DNA of 45,595 bases from Thermotogota bacterium. Its GTDB lineage: Bacteria; Thermotogota; Thermotogae; MWEM01. Where the stretch lies: assembly GCA_034659095.1 (NCBI GenBank), contig JAYEGQ010000209.1:1-45595 (forward strand). Direction: 5' to 3'. Both the position numbers and the translations under genes were made by a program. Position 1 is the first letter of the stretch; each line of letters begins with the position of its first letter. This document shows, piece after piece, positions 6,184 through 39,947 of the stretch. The notes beneath the pieces were generated by a model. The model did not search any database. It had not been told where the DNA came from and saw only the letters and a program-made list of their open reading frames with translations.

Positions 6184-7618
6184 AAAAAGGCTTGAAAACC
6201 TTTTAAAAAGAATAGAACAGATTTCAGACGTGGAAGTTGAAGAGAAATCTGATGCAACAGTTCTACCAGATATGGGTGAGGATTACATTATTAAGATACT
6301 GGATCAGGGAATCGAAAAGCTAGAAAATGAGCTTGTAAACTACAAAAATCAGCTTGAAGAAAGTTCTATTATGTTGGAAACCCAGCTTGAGGAGATTTCC
6401 AAGACCTATGAAGAACTTTCGACTCTTTACGAAGTCACAAGAATTTTATCTCATACCCTTGATCCTGTTTCAGTCGTTGATCGTCTTATCGAATCTATTA
6501 AGAATTCAATTCCGGCTGAAGGGATTGGTATCTATTTTTCCTACCTGAGTGTGGAAGATTTTTTTTGTTCAGTTAATGATGATTCCAATTTAATGAGTAA
6601 ACTAAGAGAGTGCAAAAATTTTGTGATCGAATACCTAAAAAAAGACGATGTCAAAATTCTCATGCTTGAAAATGAAAAGTTGGAAGAATTTGGCATCTCC
6701 AAGGTTATCAAATCCATGATCATTATTCCCATCAGTTCAAACAACAAGTGTTATGGGGGAATAGTACTTGCAAACCGTGAGCTTGGTGGTATTTTTACAG
6801 CCGGTGACAGAAAATTATTGGAATCAATTGCCAATCAGATTCATTTCAGTATTGAAAACTTTATCTTCCTGGAACAAAAGATTGAACAGGAAAGGCTTAG
6901 AGAGCAAATAAGTATAGCAAAAGAGATTCAAAACAGTTTATTGCCTTCAGTCATTATACAACCTAAAAATACAGAGATTGCAGCCAGTTTTTCTCCAGCT
7001 GTAGAAGTAGCCGGAGATTATTACGATGTCTTTTTTCTCGAGGACAAAACATTTCTGATTGTTGCCGATGTTTCGGGGAAGGGAATACCGGCGTCGCTAT
7101 TGATGAGTAGTTTTCGATCCGCTGTAAGAATAATGGTTCAGGGTTCTAATTCATTACCCGAACTGGTATCAAAAGTAAATGATCATATCGCTCAAAGTGA
7201 GATTACCGATCGATTTGTGACTTCCATGTTTGTACTTATGGATACAAATGAGGGTAGCTTTAAGTATTCAAATGCCGGACATGATCCAATAATTCTTTAT
7301 CGAAAAGAAACGGACGAATTTTTTGAAATAAGCAATAACGGCATACCTATAGGGATTTTTCAAGATCAACTGTATGTTGAAGAAACGTTTAATTTAAAAC
7401 CCGGGGATGTCTTTGTCATTTATACTGATGGTATTCCCGAGGCCAGAAATGAGGGAAAAGAAGAGTTTGGGTTCGAAAGGTTAAAAGAGGTTATTAAAAC
7501 TAATTATAATCATTCTGCTACTGAGATTAAAAATGAGATTCTCTATGCTGTGGAAGAGTTTGTAGGTACTGCAAAACAACACGATGATACGACTTTTATT
7601 GTTGTAAGATATTTATAA
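6173..7618 (+). CDS. coiled-coil + GAF + SpoIIE/PP2C (RsbU-like) phosphatase
   Basis: AKEIQNSLLP, VAGDYYD, ADVSGKGIPASLLM, YSNAGH, YTDGIPEA, QHDDTT. Confidence 0.9.
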   Translation: MPLRKRLENLLKRIEQISDVEVEEKSDATVLPDMGEDYIIKILDQGIEKLENELVNYKNQLEESSIMLETQLEEISKTYEELSTLYEVTRILSHTLDPVSVVDRLIESIKNSIPAEGIGIYFSYLSVEDFFCSVNDDSNLMSKLRECKNFVIEYLKKDDVKILMLENEKLEEFGISKVIKSMIIIPISSNNKCYGGIVLANRELGGIFTAGDRKLLESIANQIHFSIENFIFLEQKIEQERLREQISIAKEIQNSLLPSVIIQPKNTEIAASFSPAVEVAGDYYDVFFLEDKTFLIVADVSGKGIPASLLMSSFRSAVRIMVQGSNSLPELVSKVNDHIAQSEITDRFVTSMFVLMDTNEGSFKYSNAGHDPIILYRKETDEFFEISNNGIPIGIFQDQLYVEETFNLKPGDVFVIYTDGIPEARNEGKEEFGFERLKEVIKTNYNHSATEIKNEILYAVEEFVGTAKQHDDTTFIVVRYL

Positions 7619-29611: not shown

Positions 29612-30064
29612 TCAATAGTCTCTGTATTTCATTTCTCTGGCTATATCCCGCTTGATGGCCTTGTCTTTAAGGTCTTCTCGCTTATCGTGAATATTCTTTC
29701 CCTTTCCCAGTCCAATTTCAAGCTTAATCAGGCCCTTATTGTTGAAATAGACTTTTAAAGGCACGATGGTGTATCCCTTTTGCATAACTTTGCTTTGCAA
29801 TTTTTTTAGTTCCCGTTTATGCAAAAGTAATTTTCTTTTCCTGTCCGGTTCATGATTGAAAAAAGATGAATGAGCATATGGGGAGATATTGGCCTTTAAT
29901 AAGAAAAGTTCATTGCCCTTGAACCGGCAATAGCTTTCTTTGATGTTGATGCGGCCTTCCCGGATGGATTTGACCTCAGTGCCCAATAATTCCAGACCGG
30001 CTTCAAACTTTTCTTCTACATTGTATATGCGATAGGCGTTTTTGTTTTTTTGTACGATTTTCAT
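29612..30064 (-). CDS. smpB: SsrA-binding protein SmpB
   Basis: EAGLELLGTEVKSIR, RKRKLLLHKRE, GKGKNIHDKRE. Confidence 0.97.
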   Translation of the reverse strand: MKIVQKNKNAYRIYNVEEKFEAGLELLGTEVKSIREGRINIKESYCRFKGNELFLLKANISPYAHSSFFNHEPDRKRKLLLHKRELKKLQSKVMQKGYTIVPLKVYFNNKGLIKLEIGLGKGKNIHDKREDLKDKAIKRDIAREMKYRDY

Positions 30065-30144
30065 CTAAATCCTCCAAATTTCGTTTTGCTTATAATGATA
30101 ACATATATTTTAACTACACAACCCCCAATATTGTATCAAATCTA

Positions 30145-31068
30145 ATGGAAACGAGTTCCATCTTATCCTTTATGGAAAAAGAGATTGCCATGAGTCGAAA
30201 ACTGGCTGAAGATCCCTTGGTTCGCAAATGGATGATCAACCAAAAGGATATGGACTTGACACAGCTGGTTCAAGAACAATTGGATAGCTATCGTGATTTT
30301 ATCAGTTCCGGTACCCATTTTATGGCTGTGAAGTCCAGTCTGAATTATTCTTTAGAAGACATTGAACAGCCTGCCAAAACATTAAAAAAGGATTTAACAG
30401 CTGACAGGTGGTTTTTCGAACCCCTTGATATCGTGGGAGGAGATTTTTACTTTCTAAAACAAACAAATGAAGACATTTGGCTTGCCGGAATCGATTGTAC
30501 CGGTCATGGGGTGTCCGGTGCCTTTATGACGATGATGGCGAATGTTCTGTTAAAGGATATTATTGAGGCTAATTCTAAAGTGGGACCGGATCAGATTTTA
30601 CAACAATTCCATTATAAGCTCAAAGATTCCTTGAAATCCTCATCCAACTTCGATCATTTGGATAATGGTTTGGACATGTCCTTATGCAAAATTTATGGGA
30701 TAAATGACCGTTTAGAGTTTTCAGGAGCAGGATTACCCTTCATCTACAGTGATGAAAACGGTGTGCACGAAATTCGAGGTGACTCTTTGCATATCGGGTA
30801 CAATATAGACAAAGATTATTCCTTTACCAAACACACTATCAAGATAAAGGCAGGGATGACAGGTTATTTGCTTACCGATGGCATTCTGGATCTACCGGGT
30901 GGGGAAAAAGGCTTTGGACTGGGACGTAGCGGTCTCATTAATATTTTAGAATCCGTTAGCAGGTTGCCTTTAAAGGAACAAGAAGAAGCCATTAAGAAAC
31001 AGCTTAAAACCTACAAAGGTAATTATCATAAAAAAGATGATCTTTTATTGATGGGGTTTAGATTATGA
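30145..31068 (+). pseudogene. siaA: SiaA-like PP2C phosphatase, N-terminally truncated and internally deleted
   Basis: SiaA-like sensor fragment (EIAMSRKLAED...LDSYR...DRWFF) fused at ~30417 to a PP2C domain (PLDIVGGDFY, DCTGHGVSGAFMTM, DNGLD, TDG, DD); no TM or HAMP; no clear RBS. Confidence 0.65.
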
Positions 31069-31196
31069 TATCTGAGCAAAAAAACAAGAAAGGAATGATG
31101 AAAAAGCATTATTTTCATCATATCTACGAAATCTGCTATAGACAAAGGGTCCATTTTTTTTAGCAGTGATGAATTACAAAAGGAGGTAAAAAAACG

Positions 31197-31740
31197 GTGG
31201 AAGATCTTTTAAAATTTAAGGAAACTTTAACCCAAGAAGGAGTTCTCATTAGCTTTAACGGTTCATTTTCTAACAGTATCATTGAAGAAATTGGACGTGC
31301 CATCCGAACCTATCTTCAAAAGGAAAAACTATCCGGTGGTATCATTTCAGATGTTTTTTCGATTTACATAGAGCAGACTCAAAATATTCGTAATTATATT
31401 GAATTGAACGGCATGGCAAATACACCCGCTGGTGAGGCGATGGTTACCATCGCGAAAAAAAGGCTATTACACCATCAGTTCAGGGAACAGTGTCAAAAAG
31501 AAAGATGTGCAAAAATTGGCGGACTATTTGGAAAAATTAAACAGTTTGGATAACAAAGAATTACGAAAATTGTACAAAGAACAGCTGAGAAAACCGGTTC
31601 ATCCTGAATCCAGAAGTGCCGAGTTGGGGCTGATAGAAATTGCAAGAAAGGCTTCTGAAAAGATGCAATATCAATTCCAAAATCAGAATGAAGCTTACGA
31701 TTTTTTCAACCTGTTTGTCACTGTAAAAGGCGGTGAATGA
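31197..31740 (+). pseudogene. siaB: SiaB-family (DUF6272) protein kinase split by a frameshift
   Basis: FNGSFSNSIIEEIG...FSIYIEQTQNIRNY in one frame and SGN...ELRKLYKEQLRK...AELGLIEIARKAS in the +1 frame; switch at A7 run 31455-31461. Confidence 0.8.
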
Positions 31741-32104
31741 TCAAATGAATATTGAGCACACTTCCACATCACCGAAGGTCTTCTTTGATGAAAAAAACCA
31801 CATTTTTCTTATAGAAGGGGAATCCTACCCGGAAAACTCATTTGAGTTTTACAAGCCGATTTTTAAATGGTTTGATGAGGTGTTTCCAACATTGGACAGC
31901 ATGGAGCTTCAATTAAAGATCAGTTACATGAACTCATCCAGTGTGAAATGTATCTTGGATATAATGACCATTTTGGAAGAAGCCTATGGAACAGGTAAAA
32001 ATGTTAAAATAAAGTGGTTTTATGAACTGGAAAACAGTCGATCATTTGAACTGGCAGAAGATTTCAAGGAAGATTTGGAATTGCCTTTTGAGGTGCTAAC
32101 TTGA
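31733..32104 (+). CDS. siaC: SiaC-family (DUF1987) phosphoswitch protein
   Basis: TSTSPKV, GESYPENSFEFYKP, YMNSSSVK, WFY...ELAEDFKEDL; start 31733 or 31745. Confidence 0.88.
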   Translation: MNDQMNIEHTSTSPKVFFDEKNHIFLIEGESYPENSFEFYKPIFKWFDEVFPTLDSMELQLKISYMNSSSVKCILDIMTILEEAYGTGKNVKIKWFYELENSRSFELAEDFKEDLELPFEVLT

Positions 32105-32125
32105 GTATTCTTATGGGAGAAGAGA

Positions 32126-33901
32126 ATGAGAAATCAAAAAGAAAATGAGCTTGCCCAAAAACTTTCAAAGTTATTACCAAAACTAAAAAGTGATGAATCT
32201 GAAATGGGTCAGCAATTCTATGAAACTGCTAAGGCCTATATCCGTAATTCCAAACAGCTCTATAAGATCATTGAGATATCAGATAAAAACCAGTCGGCCA
32301 TTATGGAGATGTCAAAGAAGCTTGAAAAATCCAGGGAGGAATTAGAAAAGGCAAAGGATATAGCTGAAGAAGCCAACAAGTCAAAATCCATCTTCCTCTC
32401 CAATATGACACATGAAATTCGAACACCTTTAAACAGTATTATAGGGTTTACGGATTTACTGGTGAACCTTCCAATGGGTAAGGTCCAGAAGCAATATGTT
32501 GAGAACATCAACGTATCCGCCCATTCATTGTTGGGGGTCATCAACGATATTTTAGACTTTTCAAAAATTGAGGCAGGCAAACTTGAACTGGAGCTGCTCA
32601 AAGAAGATATCGTCAAAGTAGCTGAAAATTCCCTAAACATAATCAAGTTCCAGGCTGACAATAAAGGGTTGACATTGGAACTGGAAACGCAACAAAACAT
32701 GCCCCGTTTCGCCATCATTGATGCCTTGAGATTACGGCAAGTTCTGGTTAATCTCCTTGGAAATGCCATAAAATTTACAGAAAAAGGAACGGTTGAATTA
32801 AAACTAACATTTAACAAAATCGATGGAAAGAAAGGCGTTTACACCCTATCTGTGAAAGATACTGGGATGGGCATTACAGAAGAGAAAAGGCAAAAATTAT
32901 TTAAAGCGTTTTCGCAAACGGATGTTTCAATCACCAGAAAATTCGGAGGTACCGGCCTGGGATTGGCCATATCCGCCATGCTGGTTAAGAAGATGGGGGG
33001 TAACATCGAAGTTGAAAGTGAACATGAAAACGGTTCAACCTTTTTCTTTTCTCTACTAACCCCGTATTTTTATGAAACCAAAAAAGCTGAATCTCACGAA
33101 GAAGGTGAGCCATCAGATGAGATTAAAACTGATAAACGACCTTCTACCCTTTTAATTGCCGAAGATGTGAACATTAATATGCAGTTGATCAAGGCCATTA
33201 TTGAGAAGTATTTTCCGAATTCAAAAACATTAGAAGCCCAAAATGGTGAACAGGCTTATCAAATAACCAAAACCCAACATATCGACTTAATCCTCATGGA
33301 TGTACAAATGCCAGTGATGAACGGGTTAGACGCCACAAAAAAGATCCGTGAAGACGAATTACAAACCGATAAACACACCCCAATCATTGCCCTGACTGCT
33401 GCTGCTGTGAAAGAAGGCATTCAAAATTGCCTGGATGCTGGCATGGATGATTTTTTAACAAAACCCATCAAACAAAAATTATTCCATGAAAAAATTGATT
33501 ATTTTTTAAGTCAAAGAAAAGATGCTAAAACGAATACAAAAAAAGAAAACGATGATCTGGGACAAATAGAGGGGATTGATTGCAAAGAAGGACTGGCTCG
33601 CCTTAGTCAAAAAAAGGATTTGTATTTATCTCTATTGTGTGAATTCGCCCAACAATCTTTCCAGGACTATGATGATCTCAAACGGACTCTGAAACAAAAT
33701 ACTGTAGATGCCATCACCATTGTCCACAGAATAAAGGGGGTTGCATTTAACCTTTCAGTTAGTGGCGTAGGTCAGGCCGCGGAAGAGATTGAAACGGCCC
33801 TGAAAAATGGGGATGAGGATTCCCTTGATGCGAAAGTCGAGCGTTTGAAGATAAAAATTGAAAACTTCAAAGCTTCGATTGAGAAATATTTGAAAAAATA
33901 A
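32126..33901 (+). CDS. cytoplasmic hybrid histidine kinase (HisKA-HATPase-REC-Hpt) with SiaD-like N-terminal stalk
   Basis: FLSNMTHEIRTPLN, NLLGNAIKFT, DTGMG, GGTGLGLAI, LMDVQMP, HRIKGVAFNL; no TM segment. Confidence 0.92.
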   Translation: MRNQKENELAQKLSKLLPKLKSDESEMGQQFYETAKAYIRNSKQLYKIIEISDKNQSAIMEMSKKLEKSREELEKAKDIAEEANKSKSIFLSNMTHEIRTPLNSIIGFTDLLVNLPMGKVQKQYVENINVSAHSLLGVINDILDFSKIEAGKLELELLKEDIVKVAENSLNIIKFQADNKGLTLELETQQNMPRFAIIDALRLRQVLVNLLGNAIKFTEKGTVELKLTFNKIDGKKGVYTLSVKDTGMGITEEKRQKLFKAFSQTDVSITRKFGGTGLGLAISAMLVKKMGGNIEVESEHENGSTFFFSLLTPYFYETKKAESHEEGEPSDEIKTDKRPSTLLIAEDVNINMQLIKAIIEKYFPNSKTLEAQNGEQAYQITKTQHIDLILMDVQMPVMNGLDATKKIREDELQTDKHTPIIALTAAAVKEGIQNCLDAGMDDFLTKPIKQKLFHEKIDYFLSQRKDAKTNTKKENDDLGQIEGIDCKEGLARLSQKKDLYLSLLCEFAQQSFQDYDDLKRTLKQNTVDAITIVHRIKGVAFNLSVSGVGQAAEEIETALKNGDEDSLDAKVERLKIKIENFKASIEKYLKK

Positions 33902-36563: not shown

Positions 36564-39500
36564 ATGGTGAAGAAGATATTTTTTATCTTATTCCCGGTTA
36601 TTGCAGCTATCGTTATCGCCCTTATTTCTTGTCAATTTATGGTATCCACTCCAGAATTGCCTGTATTGAAAACGCCTGGGGACAAGGCGGGGGATGTATC
36701 TTTAAAGCCATCATTTGAGTGGGGTAAAGACACAAAGCGTGAAGATACTTCCTATTCGTTGAATTTATACAGGATAACTGATGGGGGGACAGAATTAATA
36801 TCAACAGTTGAAGACGTTGAAGGGGCGCAATACACAATTTTTCAGGAGCTTAATCCTTCTGAAAAATATGCTTGGGAGATTGTTTACGAAACAAAAAATG
36901 ACAAGACCGGAAGCTCAGGTCTGCATACGTTTACCACCAGGAAACTGGCGGATCTTTCTTTTTCAATACCTGATTCAACAGTGAGGGAAAATAACACCAT
37001 CAACATCGACTTGAACCGTTTTTTAGAGGATAAAGAAAATCGACAAGTCAGTTTTGAGTTGCTATCCGGACCAGGGAGAATCGTTGATGATATCTACACC
37101 TATGAACCCGGATACGATGGCGCCGGCGCATGTGTTGTTGAAATTGCAGCAAAGGATCCTTATCGTGAGATAAAGACTACATTTGAATTAATCGTAAAAG
37201 ATGTGTATCGCCCACCTGTTGTAAAAAACCTTCAAGAAACATATCAGGTGAATCAGGGTCAACAAATTTCCGTTGATCTCAGAAATAAAATCGAAAATCC
37301 TGATTCCAACCCCTTAAAATTTAAAATAGCACAAGGACCCGGAGAAATCCGGGATGGCGTCTATTACATCCAACCTGATTTTTCGGAAAAAGGAAGACAA
37401 CAAGTGAAAATCATAATCGAAGATCCCGCCACACAATTGGAGATTGACTTTCATGTGGTGATTAATGAGGTGAATCGAAGTCCTTCATTTGGTTTTATTC
37501 CAGTGCAAAAAGAACGAGAGAATGAAAAGGTTGAAATTGATTTAAAAGAATACGTTACCGATCCCGATGGCGATTCCTTGACTTTTTTAAAAACGGGTGG
37601 ACCCGGTCAAATTTCAGCTGATGGTCTCTTTACATGGCAACCGGATTATGATACCAACGGTGATTATACAGTTGATTTCAAATTTAGTGACGGTGTAAAC
37701 CTGGTCAATGACAGCTTCTTGTTAACGGTTGAAAATGTGAACAGAAAACCGGTTGAAGAAAAGGATATGGGAAAAACATCTTATGAATTGAAAGAAGGAG
37801 AACCATTTAGAATAGACCTTTCGAAACAATACACCGATCCGGATGATGATCTTTTGACTTTTAAGCTCATTAAAGGTCCCGGTGCGATTAAAGACGGACA
37901 ATACACGTACCTTCCGGATTTTGATTCACAGGGGGAAAGTGAAATAGTCGTTGAGATCAGGGACGGCAAAGATACACTACTTAGCCGATACACATTTGAT
38001 GTAAAAAATGTCAACAGAAAGCCCGATCTCAGCCTTGAAACCAATTCAGTCAGTAATGCTTCCATAACAAGAGATGCCTTTAAGATTGATTGGGAATCAT
38101 CAGACTTGGACGGAGAAAAGCTTACTTATAATATTTATTTTGGCGAGAATGAATCACCAAATCTTTGTGCAACAAACTTAAAATCGACAAGCTGGTCACC
38201 ATATGAAACCGGTATCAAATTAAAGCCTAATCAAGAATATTTCTGGCAAGTGGAAGTAGTGGATGAGTCGGGTTCAAAGACCATCTCTGAATTACAAACC
38301 GTTGTGTTGGAAAACAGTCCGCCTAAAAGACCGTTGATAACGACTAAAGAACACGAAGAAAAGGCCATTGGAATGCCTTACAAGTTAGAATGGGTCTCTT
38401 CTGATGATGACGATGCCTTGGGACATACATATGATATCTTTTGTGGTGAAAGTACGAATACAATGCAATTAATTGCAAGCAACATCAATCAGGAATCATT
38501 CATATTAGACGATCTTCAACAGGGGAAAGAATATTTCGTGAAAATAAGGGTAAAAGACCCTCATGGCGCAACCAACGAATCAGATGTCTTTTCATTAAAG
38601 GTTAAATTGCCGCCCGAGCCACCTGAGTCTATAGCGCAAGAATATTATGAAGAACCAATGCCTGCTACAAACGTTGTACTCAAGTGGAATATTCCTGTAG
38701 ATAAAGAGGATGAAATATTAACTTATGATATATATTTAGGAACTTCAAAAGATTCATTACAGCTGATAGAAAAAGATGCAACTGAAACAACCTATAAAGC
38801 ACAAGGATTAACGGGGGGGACCAATTATTATTGGCAGGTTATTGTTAAGGACGAATACGGAGAAAAGGTACCCGGACCGGTTTGGGATTTTGAAACAAAG
38901 TTTGGAGCAGGTTCCCAACTATGGTCTTATCCGGTAAAATACGATATTCGTTCCAGTCCCGCGGTTTCCGATGACGGCATCATCTATTTTGGAGCAGATG
39001 ATGATTACCTCTATGCCATCGACAGAGAAGGCCAACTGATCTGGAAATTTGATTGCGGCAATTTCATCTATCCCAGTCCCACGATAGGGCCTGATGGAAG
39101 GGTGTATATTGCAGCGGGTCATAAGTACATTTACGCCGTTGATCAAACAGGCAGTCAGCTATGGCGTAAAGAGATAACTTCCGGATGCTATTCCAGTCCC
39201 GCAGTAGACCAGAATGGAATCGTGTATATCGGGGATTCTTCAGGAATTTTGCATGCTATTTCACCATCAGGTGAAACGCTGTGGACTTACCAGGCGGCTG
39301 ATGAAATACGTTCCAGTCCTTCTGTGGGAAAATCCGGAACGATTTATTTTGGATCGGATGATCAATCCATTTACGCCTTGAACAGGGACGGGAGTCTAAA
39401 ATGGTCTTTTAAAACTGATGGATTTGTCCGTTCCAGTCCGGCTCTTGACGAAGAGGAAAGGGTTTATGTGGGTTCTTTTGACGGTAAACTCTATGTGCTA

Positions 39501-39947
39501 AACAAAAACGGTGCATTGATCTGGGAATATGATACCGGGTCACAGTTACGCTCAAGTCCGTCGATTTATCACGATGGTACCGTTTATATCGGTGCCTTTG
39601 ATGGTAAATTGTATGCTTTTGACCACCTGGGGAAGAAAAAATGGTCATATTCAATTGAAGAAGGTCCGTTCTGGTCATCCAGTCCGGCCATTGGAGAAGA
39701 CGGGACGATTTACATTGGAACATGGGAAAGGCAGATTCTGGCGATTGATGCGAAAGGTAACCTTAAGTGGCGACTGGAGACCGATGATTATATCAAATCC
39801 AGTCCAGTTATCGATGAAAATGGTGCACTGTATATCGGGACATACGGTGCTCAACTGCTGTCAATTGCAACGGACAGCAAAGGTCTTTCAACAGATTCTC
39901 CATGGCCCATGTTCAGAAAAGACGCGAAACACACAGCCTGCCAATAA
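36564..39947 (+). CDS. large surface lipoprotein: FN3-like, 4 cadherin/Ig-like, 3 FN3-like and 8-bladed PQQ/BamB-type propeller domains
   Basis: lipobox LISC; four GPG...PDFD...VNRxP repeats; three W...TYDIY.G...YYWQV repeats; eight SSPA....G.IY.G blades; C-terminal SPWPMFR. Confidence 0.85.
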   Translation: MVKKIFFILFPVIAAIVIALISCQFMVSTPELPVLKTPGDKAGDVSLKPSFEWGKDTKREDTSYSLNLYRITDGGTELISTVEDVEGAQYTIFQELNPSEKYAWEIVYETKNDKTGSSGLHTFTTRKLADLSFSIPDSTVRENNTINIDLNRFLEDKENRQVSFELLSGPGRIVDDIYTYEPGYDGAGACVVEIAAKDPYREIKTTFELIVKDVYRPPVVKNLQETYQVNQGQQISVDLRNKIENPDSNPLKFKIAQGPGEIRDGVYYIQPDFSEKGRQQVKIIIEDPATQLEIDFHVVINEVNRSPSFGFIPVQKERENEKVEIDLKEYVTDPDGDSLTFLKTGGPGQISADGLFTWQPDYDTNGDYTVDFKFSDGVNLVNDSFLLTVENVNRKPVEEKDMGKTSYELKEGEPFRIDLSKQYTDPDDDLLTFKLIKGPGAIKDGQYTYLPDFDSQGESEIVVEIRDGKDTLLSRYTFDVKNVNRKPDLSLETNSVSNASITRDAFKIDWESSDLDGEKLTYNIYFGENESPNLCATNLKSTSWSPYETGIKLKPNQEYFWQVEVVDESGSKTISELQTVVLENSPPKRPLITTKEHEEKAIGMPYKLEWVSSDDDDALGHTYDIFCGESTNTMQLIASNINQESFILDDLQQGKEYFVKIRVKDPHGATNESDVFSLKVKLPPEPPESIAQEYYEEPMPATNVVLKWNIPVDKEDEILTYDIYLGTSKDSLQLIEKDATETTYKAQGLTGGTNYYWQVIVKDEYGEKVPGPVWDFETKFGAGSQLWSYPVKYDIRSSPAVSDDGIIYFGADDDYLYAIDREGQLIWKFDCGNFIYPSPTIGPDGRVYIAAGHKYIYAVDQTGSQLWRKEITSGCYSSPAVDQNGIVYIGDSSGILHAISPSGETLWTYQAADEIRSSPSVGKSGTIYFGSDDQSIYALNRDGSLKWSFKTDGFVRSSPALDEEERVYVGSFDGKLYVLNKNGALIWEYDTGSQLRSSPSIYHDGTVYIGAFDGKLYAFDHLGKKKWSYSIEEGPFWSSSPAIGEDGTIYIGTWERQILAIDAKGNLKWRLETDDYIKSSPVIDENGALYIGTYGAQLLSIATDSKGLSTDSPWPMFRKDAKHTACQ

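Follow-up and report, generated by a model that had tools for sequence, protein, structure and literature searches.

Which enzyme does SiaC control when no diguanylate cyclase gene accompanies it? SiaC has been characterised in one role only, in Pseudomonas aeruginosa, where it activates the diguanylate cyclase SiaD (PMC8457831, PMC7647112, PMC12834913, PMC7278518). The question is raised by four head-to-tail genes at positions 30145-33901 (+ strand) of contig C209 (JAYEGQ010000209.1) from a Thermotogota bacterium. The contig, 45,595 nucleotides in full, is the window of this analysis and belongs to a 2.72-Mb metagenome-assembled genome (MAG) of 331 contigs that is 91% complete. Between a divergent smpB gene on one side and a convergent methyltransferase-like gene on the other, the operon codes for a SiaA-type PP2C phosphatase, a SiaB-family kinase, SiaC (DUF1987) and a soluble HisKA-HATPase-REC-Hpt hybrid histidine kinase, in the order and at the coordinates given by the original prediction, an earlier reading of this DNA. 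The siaC start codon overlaps the siaB stop codon, and the kinase gene is preceded by 21 nt with a GGGAGAAGAG ribosome-binding site. The absence of a GGDEF gene from the window, noted in the original prediction, also stood, as the genome holds 14 GGDEF matches and contig C209 holds 0.

We propose, with a probability of about 0.6, that the locus encodes a SiaABC Ser/Thr partner switch whose output is the soluble hybrid histidine kinase and not SiaD, and that SiaC probably serves as the trans-acting sensor of the kinase, replacing the sensor that the kinase lacks. The computed results that carry this reading are the domain content of the proteins, the homology of a stalk motif, its recurrence beside siaC on several kinase types and a conserved register; we infer that SiaC binds the kinase, that binding depends on phosphorylation, and what sign the effect would have. 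The earlier suggestion that the stalk is a portable input domain is supported by the stalk homology, by the recurrence and by a predicted complex with its interface at the expected place.

The stalk of the hybrid kinase

The kinase gene (32126-33901, + strand) codes for 591 amino acids, with HisKA at residues 87-151, HATPase_c at 199-310, REC at 343-457 and Hpt at 503-583. All four Pfam domains scored above their cut-offs, and H96, D392 and H534 stand in the conserved contexts expected of a hybrid kinase: His96 (32411-32413) in the H-box MTHEIRTP of the kinase core formed by HisKA and HATPase_c (32384-33055), Asp392 (33299-33301) in LILMDVQMP of the receiver (33152-33496; PF00072, 92.4 bits), and His534 (33725-33727) in VHRIKG of the Hpt domain (33632-33874; PF01627, 31.9 bits). 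The kinase had been described as cytoplasmic and devoid of a recognisable sensor. Both descriptions held: the highest 19-residue Kyte-Doolittle mean was 1.13, so that no membrane helix is predicted, and residues 1-86 gave no Pfam match at an expectation value (E) of <=0.01, with the exception of a sub-threshold match to IFT57. These residues form an N-terminal stalk module (32126-32383), recognised by alignments and profile search, which can be aligned from residue 1 onwards with the N-terminal ends of five further types of kinase encoded beside siaC. When residues 1-95 were used in a word-index homologue search, whose reach is limited to similar sequences, only 11 close relatives were found, with 65-100% identity. 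The predicted SiaC-docking motif lies within the module at residues 40-60 (32243-32305; core KIIEISDKNQ), as placed by a hidden Markov model (HMM) derived from GGDEF proteins, by the predicted interface and by the contacts of SiaD. The peptide singled out in the original prediction, QLYKIIEISDKNQ, is kinase residues 44-56, exactly at 32255-32293.

The siaC gene (31733-32104, + strand) codes for a protein of 123 amino acids that matched PF09345 with 130.7 bits (cut-off 24.5) and the P. aeruginosa SiaC chains 6k4f and 6kko with E values of 6e-24 and 8e-24, respectively. It is 35-40% identical to P. aeruginosa SiaC over 118 residues, and it scored 129.2 bits against the NCBIfam SiaC equivalog model, below the cut-off of 150. 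Ser68 stands at the site of the phosphorylated Thr68 of P. aeruginosa SiaC (aligned segment YLNTSS/YMNSSS); the window protein thus belongs to PF09345 and has a phosphorylatable residue at this site. Both SiaC and the kinase are intact, and are 88-90% identical to the proteins of relatives.

The residues of SiaD that touch SiaC are R74, K77, V78, R80, I81, S82, D83, R84, Y85, Q86, M88, R90 and D91, and S82 and Q86 hold Thr68 of SiaC (PMC8457831); the SiaD stalk string given in the original prediction agreed with the named contacts R74, K77, V78 and R80-Q86 (PMC8457831). At matching SiaD contact places the kinase has K47, I48, I51, S52, D53, K54, Q56 and E61, and K47, I51 and D53 were invariant in stalk alignments A2 and A3. 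The forward HMM was built from 58 windows of 36 residues each, cut solely from GGDEF proteins whose genes follow siaC in other phyla and picked by a pattern for six core residues that follows the crystal contacts. It matched kinase residues 36-68 with an E value of 2.3e-4 (20.6 bits), bearing out the suspected stalk homology. Among the 17143 six-frame open reading frames (ORFs; >=50 amino acids) of the genome, the kinase was the sole significant match, the next having an E value of 0.075; no GGDEF ORF of this genome was significant, the best, on contig C36, reaching 0.87. When the 3932 ORFs of all fetched loci were searched, every match with E<0.1 was the gene directly after siaC.

The search was also made in the reverse direction. 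A profile of alignment A3, which contains 16 kinase N-termini only, was run against 1.84 billion protein cluster representatives, a library without genomic context, and found 371 representatives at E<=0.001, 40 of them at E<=1e-10. The best 150 of the 371 comprised 71 GGDEF proteins, 45 kinase cores, 22 of which have a receiver, 2 PP2C proteins and 32 proteins that matched none of the five domain queries; the final ~20 columns of the profile reach the beginning of HisKA and may inflate the kinase matches, but not the GGDEF matches, which fall on stalk columns. In Pfam searches of eight of the proteins found, the module also stood before HD/HD_5, SpoIIE and HATPase_c kinase domains. Thus the output enzyme carries the stalk motif by the forward HMM, by the reciprocal match of the kinase profile to GGDEF proteins and by a predicted interface that falls on the motif.

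The position of the motif relative to the catalytic histidine is conserved. The motif Ser and the phospho-His are 44 residues apart (Ser52-His96 in the window) in the kinases of the Thermotogota family f1, of Cloacimonadota and of Burkholderiales, and 23 residues apart in Azospirillum kinases, a difference of 21 residues or three heptads. Judged from the sequences, this register is compatible with an unbroken coiled coil that extends from the docking site into the DHp helix.

A complex of two copies of kinase residues 1-160 and two copies of SiaC was modelled with custom alignments supplied. The predicted SiaC-kinase pairing gave ipSAE values of 0.79, 0.78 and 0.79, compared to 0.25, 0.00 and 0.00 for the controls, with the interface where it was expected; the ipSAE mark is reached by 58 of 80 solved complexes and by 2 of 110 mismatched pairs. 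The runs shared >=96% of contacts, and the predicted local distance difference test (pLDDT) of the partner was >=88. The predicted interface comprises residues 40, 43-45, 47-58 and 60 of the kinase and residues 32, 37, 65-69, 71-72, 75, 79, 103, 106-107, 110 and 113-114 of SiaC, with SiaC 65-69 seated on kinase 43-58. On the SiaC side this is the residue set named for the SiaC-SiaD complex, in which Y65, N67, T68, S69, I71, M75, D79, R103, L107, E110 and D114 lie at the SiaD interface (PMC8457831).

Several proteins found by the reverse profile deserve mention of their own. In P0088, P0114, P0149 and P0085 the module precedes an HD/HD_5 domain, SpoIIE/PP2C domains or a HATPase_c protein that also has weak Hpt and CheX matches. 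In many proteins with two stalks (P0034, P0039, P0048, P0058, P0105, P0139) the two copies are separated by a Cys-rich segment that is conserved as C-x2-C-K-K-I-R-x-D-x-G-Y-W-x-Q-L-E-Q-Y. One of them, P0048, gave no Pfam match at all.

Partners of SiaC in other genomes

SiaC was found in 19 of the 151 species genomes of the phylum, and the gene that follows siaC in Thermotogota varies by lineage. It codes for the same hybrid kinase in 7/7 loci of family f1, for a HATPase kinase of 515-537 amino acids (followed by a receiver protein) in genus g27, for a GGDEF protein of 236 amino acids in genus g31, and for a TerB-ABC transporter in genus g16. The f1 hybrid kinase, the g27 HATPase kinase and the g31 GGDEF protein all carry the stalk motif.

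From other phyla 80 SiaC loci were fetched, and 78 SiaC ORFs were tallied by the gene that follows. A GGDEF gene was found in 38 loci (stalk HMM E<0.01 in 36), a histidine kinase gene in 8 (E<0.01 in 7), a PP2C gene in 1 (stalk HMM not counted) and another or unrecognised gene in 18 (E<0.01 in 2); in 13 loci there was no same-strand gene within 350 nt. The eight kinase loci come from Cloacimonadota (L039, L040), Azospirillum (L045, L046, L049, L050), an Opitutia MAG (L061) and a Burkholderiales MAG (L071). Other genomes with siaC beside such a kinase, on whose existence the original prediction had staked its idea, therefore amount to all 7 family f1 loci and 8 of the 78 from other phyla, and at least five lineages have a motif-bearing kinase encoded beside siaC. 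In three siaABC clusters a kinase and a GGDEF protein are encoded together and both have the motif (Azospirillum L045, 6393-8080, and L050, 6411-8155; Burkholderiales L071, 2506-3243 and 6409-7401), so that one SiaC may have two targets there.

In a quick tree of SiaC proteins, with SH-aLRT support only, the window SiaC grouped with family f1 (support 99) and next with the pair from Cloacimonadota (97), all of them within a GGDEF-linked SiaC clade (97); the other two Thermotogota SiaC lineages were placed elsewhere. The label "kinase" required 5 parsimony changes on this tree, at least 2 of them forced by well-supported branches. These changes suggest that the pairing of siaC with a kinase arose more than once, as read from the quick tree, and that the cassette was probably moved between phyla.

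Some loci departed from the common arrangement. In L022 (2297-5365) siaC is followed by a TerB-ABC transporter fusion of 1022 amino acids with no stalk motif, and its SiaC grouped with Bacteroidota in the quick tree. In L038 (genome G074, genus g27; 6581-6856) SiaC matches its model in two pieces (positions 1-82 and 66-119), and the kinase region that follows is likewise divided into shorter ORFs; this cassette may be broken. SiaC and GGDEF form a single protein of 392 amino acids in an Aminicenantes MAG (L087, 6493-7671), and SiaC stands at the C-terminus of proteins of 352-357 amino acids in two Pseudomonadota records (L067, 5305-6378; L092, 5326-6384). The 885-amino acid and 241-amino acid genes after the kinase in L037 were considered as response regulator genes and rejected, since they code for SNF2 helicase and SWIM proteins.

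The upstream genes, the proposed mechanism and its rivals

The siaA-like gene (30145-31068, + strand) codes for a PP2C phosphatase of 307 amino acids and is a truncated allele. The PP2C domain reported by the original prediction is present (SpoIIE/PP2C, 64.5 bits); what had been missed is that the gene is a deletion derivative. Against the NCBIfam SiaA model the product scored 209.6 bits, under the 700-bit equivalog cut-off. It consists of 95 residues of a dCache sensor joined in frame to a complete PP2C domain, and it has lost both membrane helices, most of the Cache sensor and HAMP. The highest 19-residue Kyte-Doolittle mean was 1.26, compared to two hydrophobic segments (~6-34 and ~302-330) in SiaA of the relative L033, and the truncated protein is probably cytoplasmic. 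Same-genus relatives (88-91% nucleotide identity) have SiaA proteins of 657-705 amino acids with the full membrane-anchored dCache-HAMP-SpoIIE layout, which the window protein does not have.

Compared to these relatives, the window siaA has two deletions, one of 245 bp at the 5' end and one of 897 bp in frame. The first (junction 30145-30148), as aligned by blastn with L033 and L034, comprises 92 bp upstream of the start codon and the first 51 codons, which include the first membrane helix. The second (junction 30413-30428) removed 299 codons, in frame, between imperfect direct repeats of 13-16 bp. Assembled Logan contigs from X1, X2 and X4, which are runs of one brine-metagenome study, were compared with the window. 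The first deletion was bridged by a 12.4-kb contig of X1 (record 1), and both deletions were bridged by a 406-bp contig of X2 (record 7, 30060-30465). The undeleted form was also seen: at the first junction an X4 contig continues into undeleted sequence, and at the second so do loose contig ends in X4, behind 30428, and in a low-depth minor X1 contig, before 30413. These findings show that truncated and full-length siaA alleles coexist in that study and that the deletions are not an artefact of binning. The spacer between siaA and siaB (31071-31178) is ~100 bp longer than that of relatives (~35 bp), and no second copy of the extra DNA was found in the genome.

The siaB-family gene (31197-31740, + strand) is read as two ORFs, 31197-31553 and 31432-31740, which overlap in different frames and represent the N- and C-terminal halves of one DUF6272 kinase. 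The halves matched PF19788 at positions 1-52 and 51-134 and NF038262 at positions 2-88 and 87-177, respectively. Against NF038262 (cut-off 85) they scored 74.8 and 102.6 bits, compared to 187.8 bits for the intact protein of relatives, in which SiaB is a single protein of 181-193 amino acids. The halves thus match the SiaB-like family named by the original prediction, which the frameshift in the assembly had escaped. The frame breaks at a run of seven A (31455-31461), where relatives read GCG-A8-C-GG, giving AKKNGYY. One contig alone spans the run (X4 record 19); it reads A9, two A longer than the window, and is in frame, with Lys for Asn. The contigs of X1, the best-matching run, end and begin inside the run and none bridges it. 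The frameshift is thus unconfirmed by independent contigs. A programmed frameshift was considered and rejected, as the frame of relatives is uninterrupted.

In the mechanism that we propose, unphosphorylated SiaC would dock, two copies per kinase dimer, on the parallel coiled coil at about kinase residues 40-60, with Ser68 of SiaC inserted between the two helices at kinase Ser52/Gln56. Because whole heptads separate the motif from His96 downstream, the clamp could be passed down a continuous helix into the DHp bundle. By analogy with SiaD, docking would favour the active state of the kinase, and hence the relay from His96 to Asp392 to His534 and on to a response regulator. SiaC would come off the stalk once SiaB had phosphorylated Ser68, and would dock again through the action of the PP2C phosphatase SiaA. 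Because the sensor, the membrane anchors and HAMP of SiaA are lost and siaB is possibly broken, the switch of the window strain is probably blind to signal and biased to unphosphorylated, docked SiaC.

A number of observations weigh against this proposal. The motif match is short, and at four of the 13 positions where SiaD touches SiaC the kinase has another residue (R74 to Q44, R80 to E50, Y85 to N55 and R90 to M60). When the six core columns of the HMM were masked, the kinase fell to an E value of 1.6 and rank 5 in the genome, the flanks alone being not significant, and the stalk signal thus lies in the core motif. One of the eight kinase partners, that of L039, reached an E value of only 0.024. 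A phmmer search of kinase residues 1-95 against PDB sequences returned no SiaD, only designed helical bundles and coiled coils with E>0.1; a single short sequence is too weak a query for phmmer, and profiles are needed. The predicted complex may owe its score to the structure 7E6G of SiaC with SiaD, which is already solved, and speaks for likeness, not binding; its custom alignments and 2+2 stoichiometry depart from the conditions under which ipSAE was calibrated. The upstream genes are damaged in the window strain, where the module may not work as a switch, and no cognate response regulator was identified for the kinase relay. The weakest step is the sign of regulation, which is pure analogy with SiaD.

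It is on this step that the proposal could be turned around. SiaC might bind the stalk but switch the kinase off or into phosphatase mode, so that the unphosphorylated switch would silence the phosphorelay. The docking evidence is the same for either sign and no computed result bears on the choice. Rigidification of a coiled coil upstream of DHp can favour either state in many histidine kinases. We nevertheless hold an inhibitory clamp, the main rival of the proposal, to be unlikely, because SiaD, the sole characterised partner, is activated by SiaC through stabilisation of its parallel dimer (PMC8457831), and the kinase likewise needs a parallel DHp dimer. A different objection concerns the binding itself: the resemblance of the stalk to SiaD might be due to chance or to a generic coiled coil, with SiaC acting elsewhere, for example on one of the 14 GGDEF matches. 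A motif core of only ~10 residues, the loss of significance when flanks alone are scored and the presence of GGDEF genes in the genome would all be compatible with this. We consider it very improbable, however. The stalk HMM brought no other ORF of the genome, the GGDEF ORFs included, to E<0.05; in different phyla and on different types of output enzyme the motif goes together with a position beside siaC; its spacing to the catalytic His keeps the same register; and the module aligns from residue 1 in all kinase classes.

The damage to the upstream genes allows the further reading that the cassette is decaying in this genome, siaA, its ribosome-binding region lost, and siaB being pseudogenes and SiaC and the kinase no longer a regulated switch. 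The siaA deletions were bridged by independent contigs in two runs, no Shine-Dalgarno-like sequence was seen by eye before the new ATG at 30145, and siaB is out of frame in the assembly. In contrast, the second siaA deletion preserves the reading frame exactly and spares the entire PP2C domain, SiaC and the kinase have stayed intact and close to those of relatives, and the siaB frameshift is unconfirmed, with the only bridging contig (A9) in frame and the contigs of the best run broken within the A run. Moreover, the coexistence of undeleted alleles in the same study indicates recent strain-level variation, which counts against decay. Taken together, we find decay distinctly improbable and retain the partner switch with a kinase output as the preferred reading.

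The locus beside known switches

The module is ordinary in its parts and unusual in its wiring. It resembles SiaABCD of P. aeruginosa in having the same three upstream families in the same order, in the sensor-HAMP-PP2C layout of the relatives' SiaA, which covers positions 10-657 of the SiaA model, and in an output protein whose N-terminal helical stalk bears K-[VI]-x-x-I-S-D-[KR]-x-Q, corresponding to the SiaC-contacting residues of SiaD. It differs in that the output is a HisKA-HATPase-REC-Hpt kinase with no GGDEF domain, that this kinase has one stalk motif where SiaD has two, that the expected product is a phosphorelay and not cyclic di-GMP, and that, in the window strain, SiaA has lost its sensor, both membrane helices and HAMP and the assembled siaB carries a frameshift. 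The kinase shares its domain order with BarA, TorS and ArcB, whose NCBIfam models were its best matches, with 405, 349 and 311 bits, respectively, all under the equivalog cut-offs. Unlike these, it has no membrane helices, periplasmic domain, HAMP or PAS. As only the 86-residue stalk module lies upstream of DHp, the input is presumably a protein partner and not a ligand.

STAS-based partner switches acting on cyclic di-GMP enzymes are represented by HptB-HsbR-HsbA-HsbD of P. aeruginosa and BgrSTUWV-BgrR of Sinorhizobium, in which a small phosphorylatable protein of STAS-like fold binds and regulates a signalling enzyme and is set, as in SiaABC, by a PP2C phosphatase and a GHKL-type kinase; the target there, unlike in the window, is a diguanylate cyclase (PMC8457831). 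In HptB-HsbR a phosphorelay feeds the switch, whereas in the window the switch would feed a phosphorelay. DUF1987 proteins have been proposed to modulate "adjacent proteins" (PMC8457831), and PMC9239204 mentions SiaABCD only as a citation. A full-text literature search, supplements lying outside its scope, found no paper on control of a histidine kinase by SiaC, in agreement with the earlier statement that no characterised example was known.

A histidine kinase is regarded as a sensor complete in itself; in the arrangement proposed here its input would come from another protein, a phosphoprotein whose state a Ser/Thr kinase and a phosphatase determine, and two signalling chemistries would be linked in the order Ser/Thr phosphorylation and then His-Asp. 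The docking motif and its conserved register to the catalytic His would provide a rule for predicting target kinases, many sensor-less kinases would gain an assigned function, and the coiled-coil clamp would be a simple model for control of DHp. More tentatively, and at somewhat less than even odds, the stalk of ~70 residues may be a general, uncatalogued SiaC-receiver module, found on GGDEF, HisKA (plain or hybrid), CheA-like Hpt-HATPase, HD/HD-GYP-type and PP2C outputs and always clamping a coiled coil in a fixed heptad register. If so, SiaC targets would be predictable from sequence, seemingly sensor-less kinases would be sensed in trans, and the truncated siaA allele would be a natural signal-blind variant segregating in the population.

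A sequence scan gave 14 promoter-like sites compared to 12.3 expected and 6 terminator-like sites compared to 3.7 expected, which was uninformative. Elsewhere in the window, positions 36564-39947 code for a secreted-looking protein of 1127 amino acids with many internal repeats, as judged by eye from the translation.

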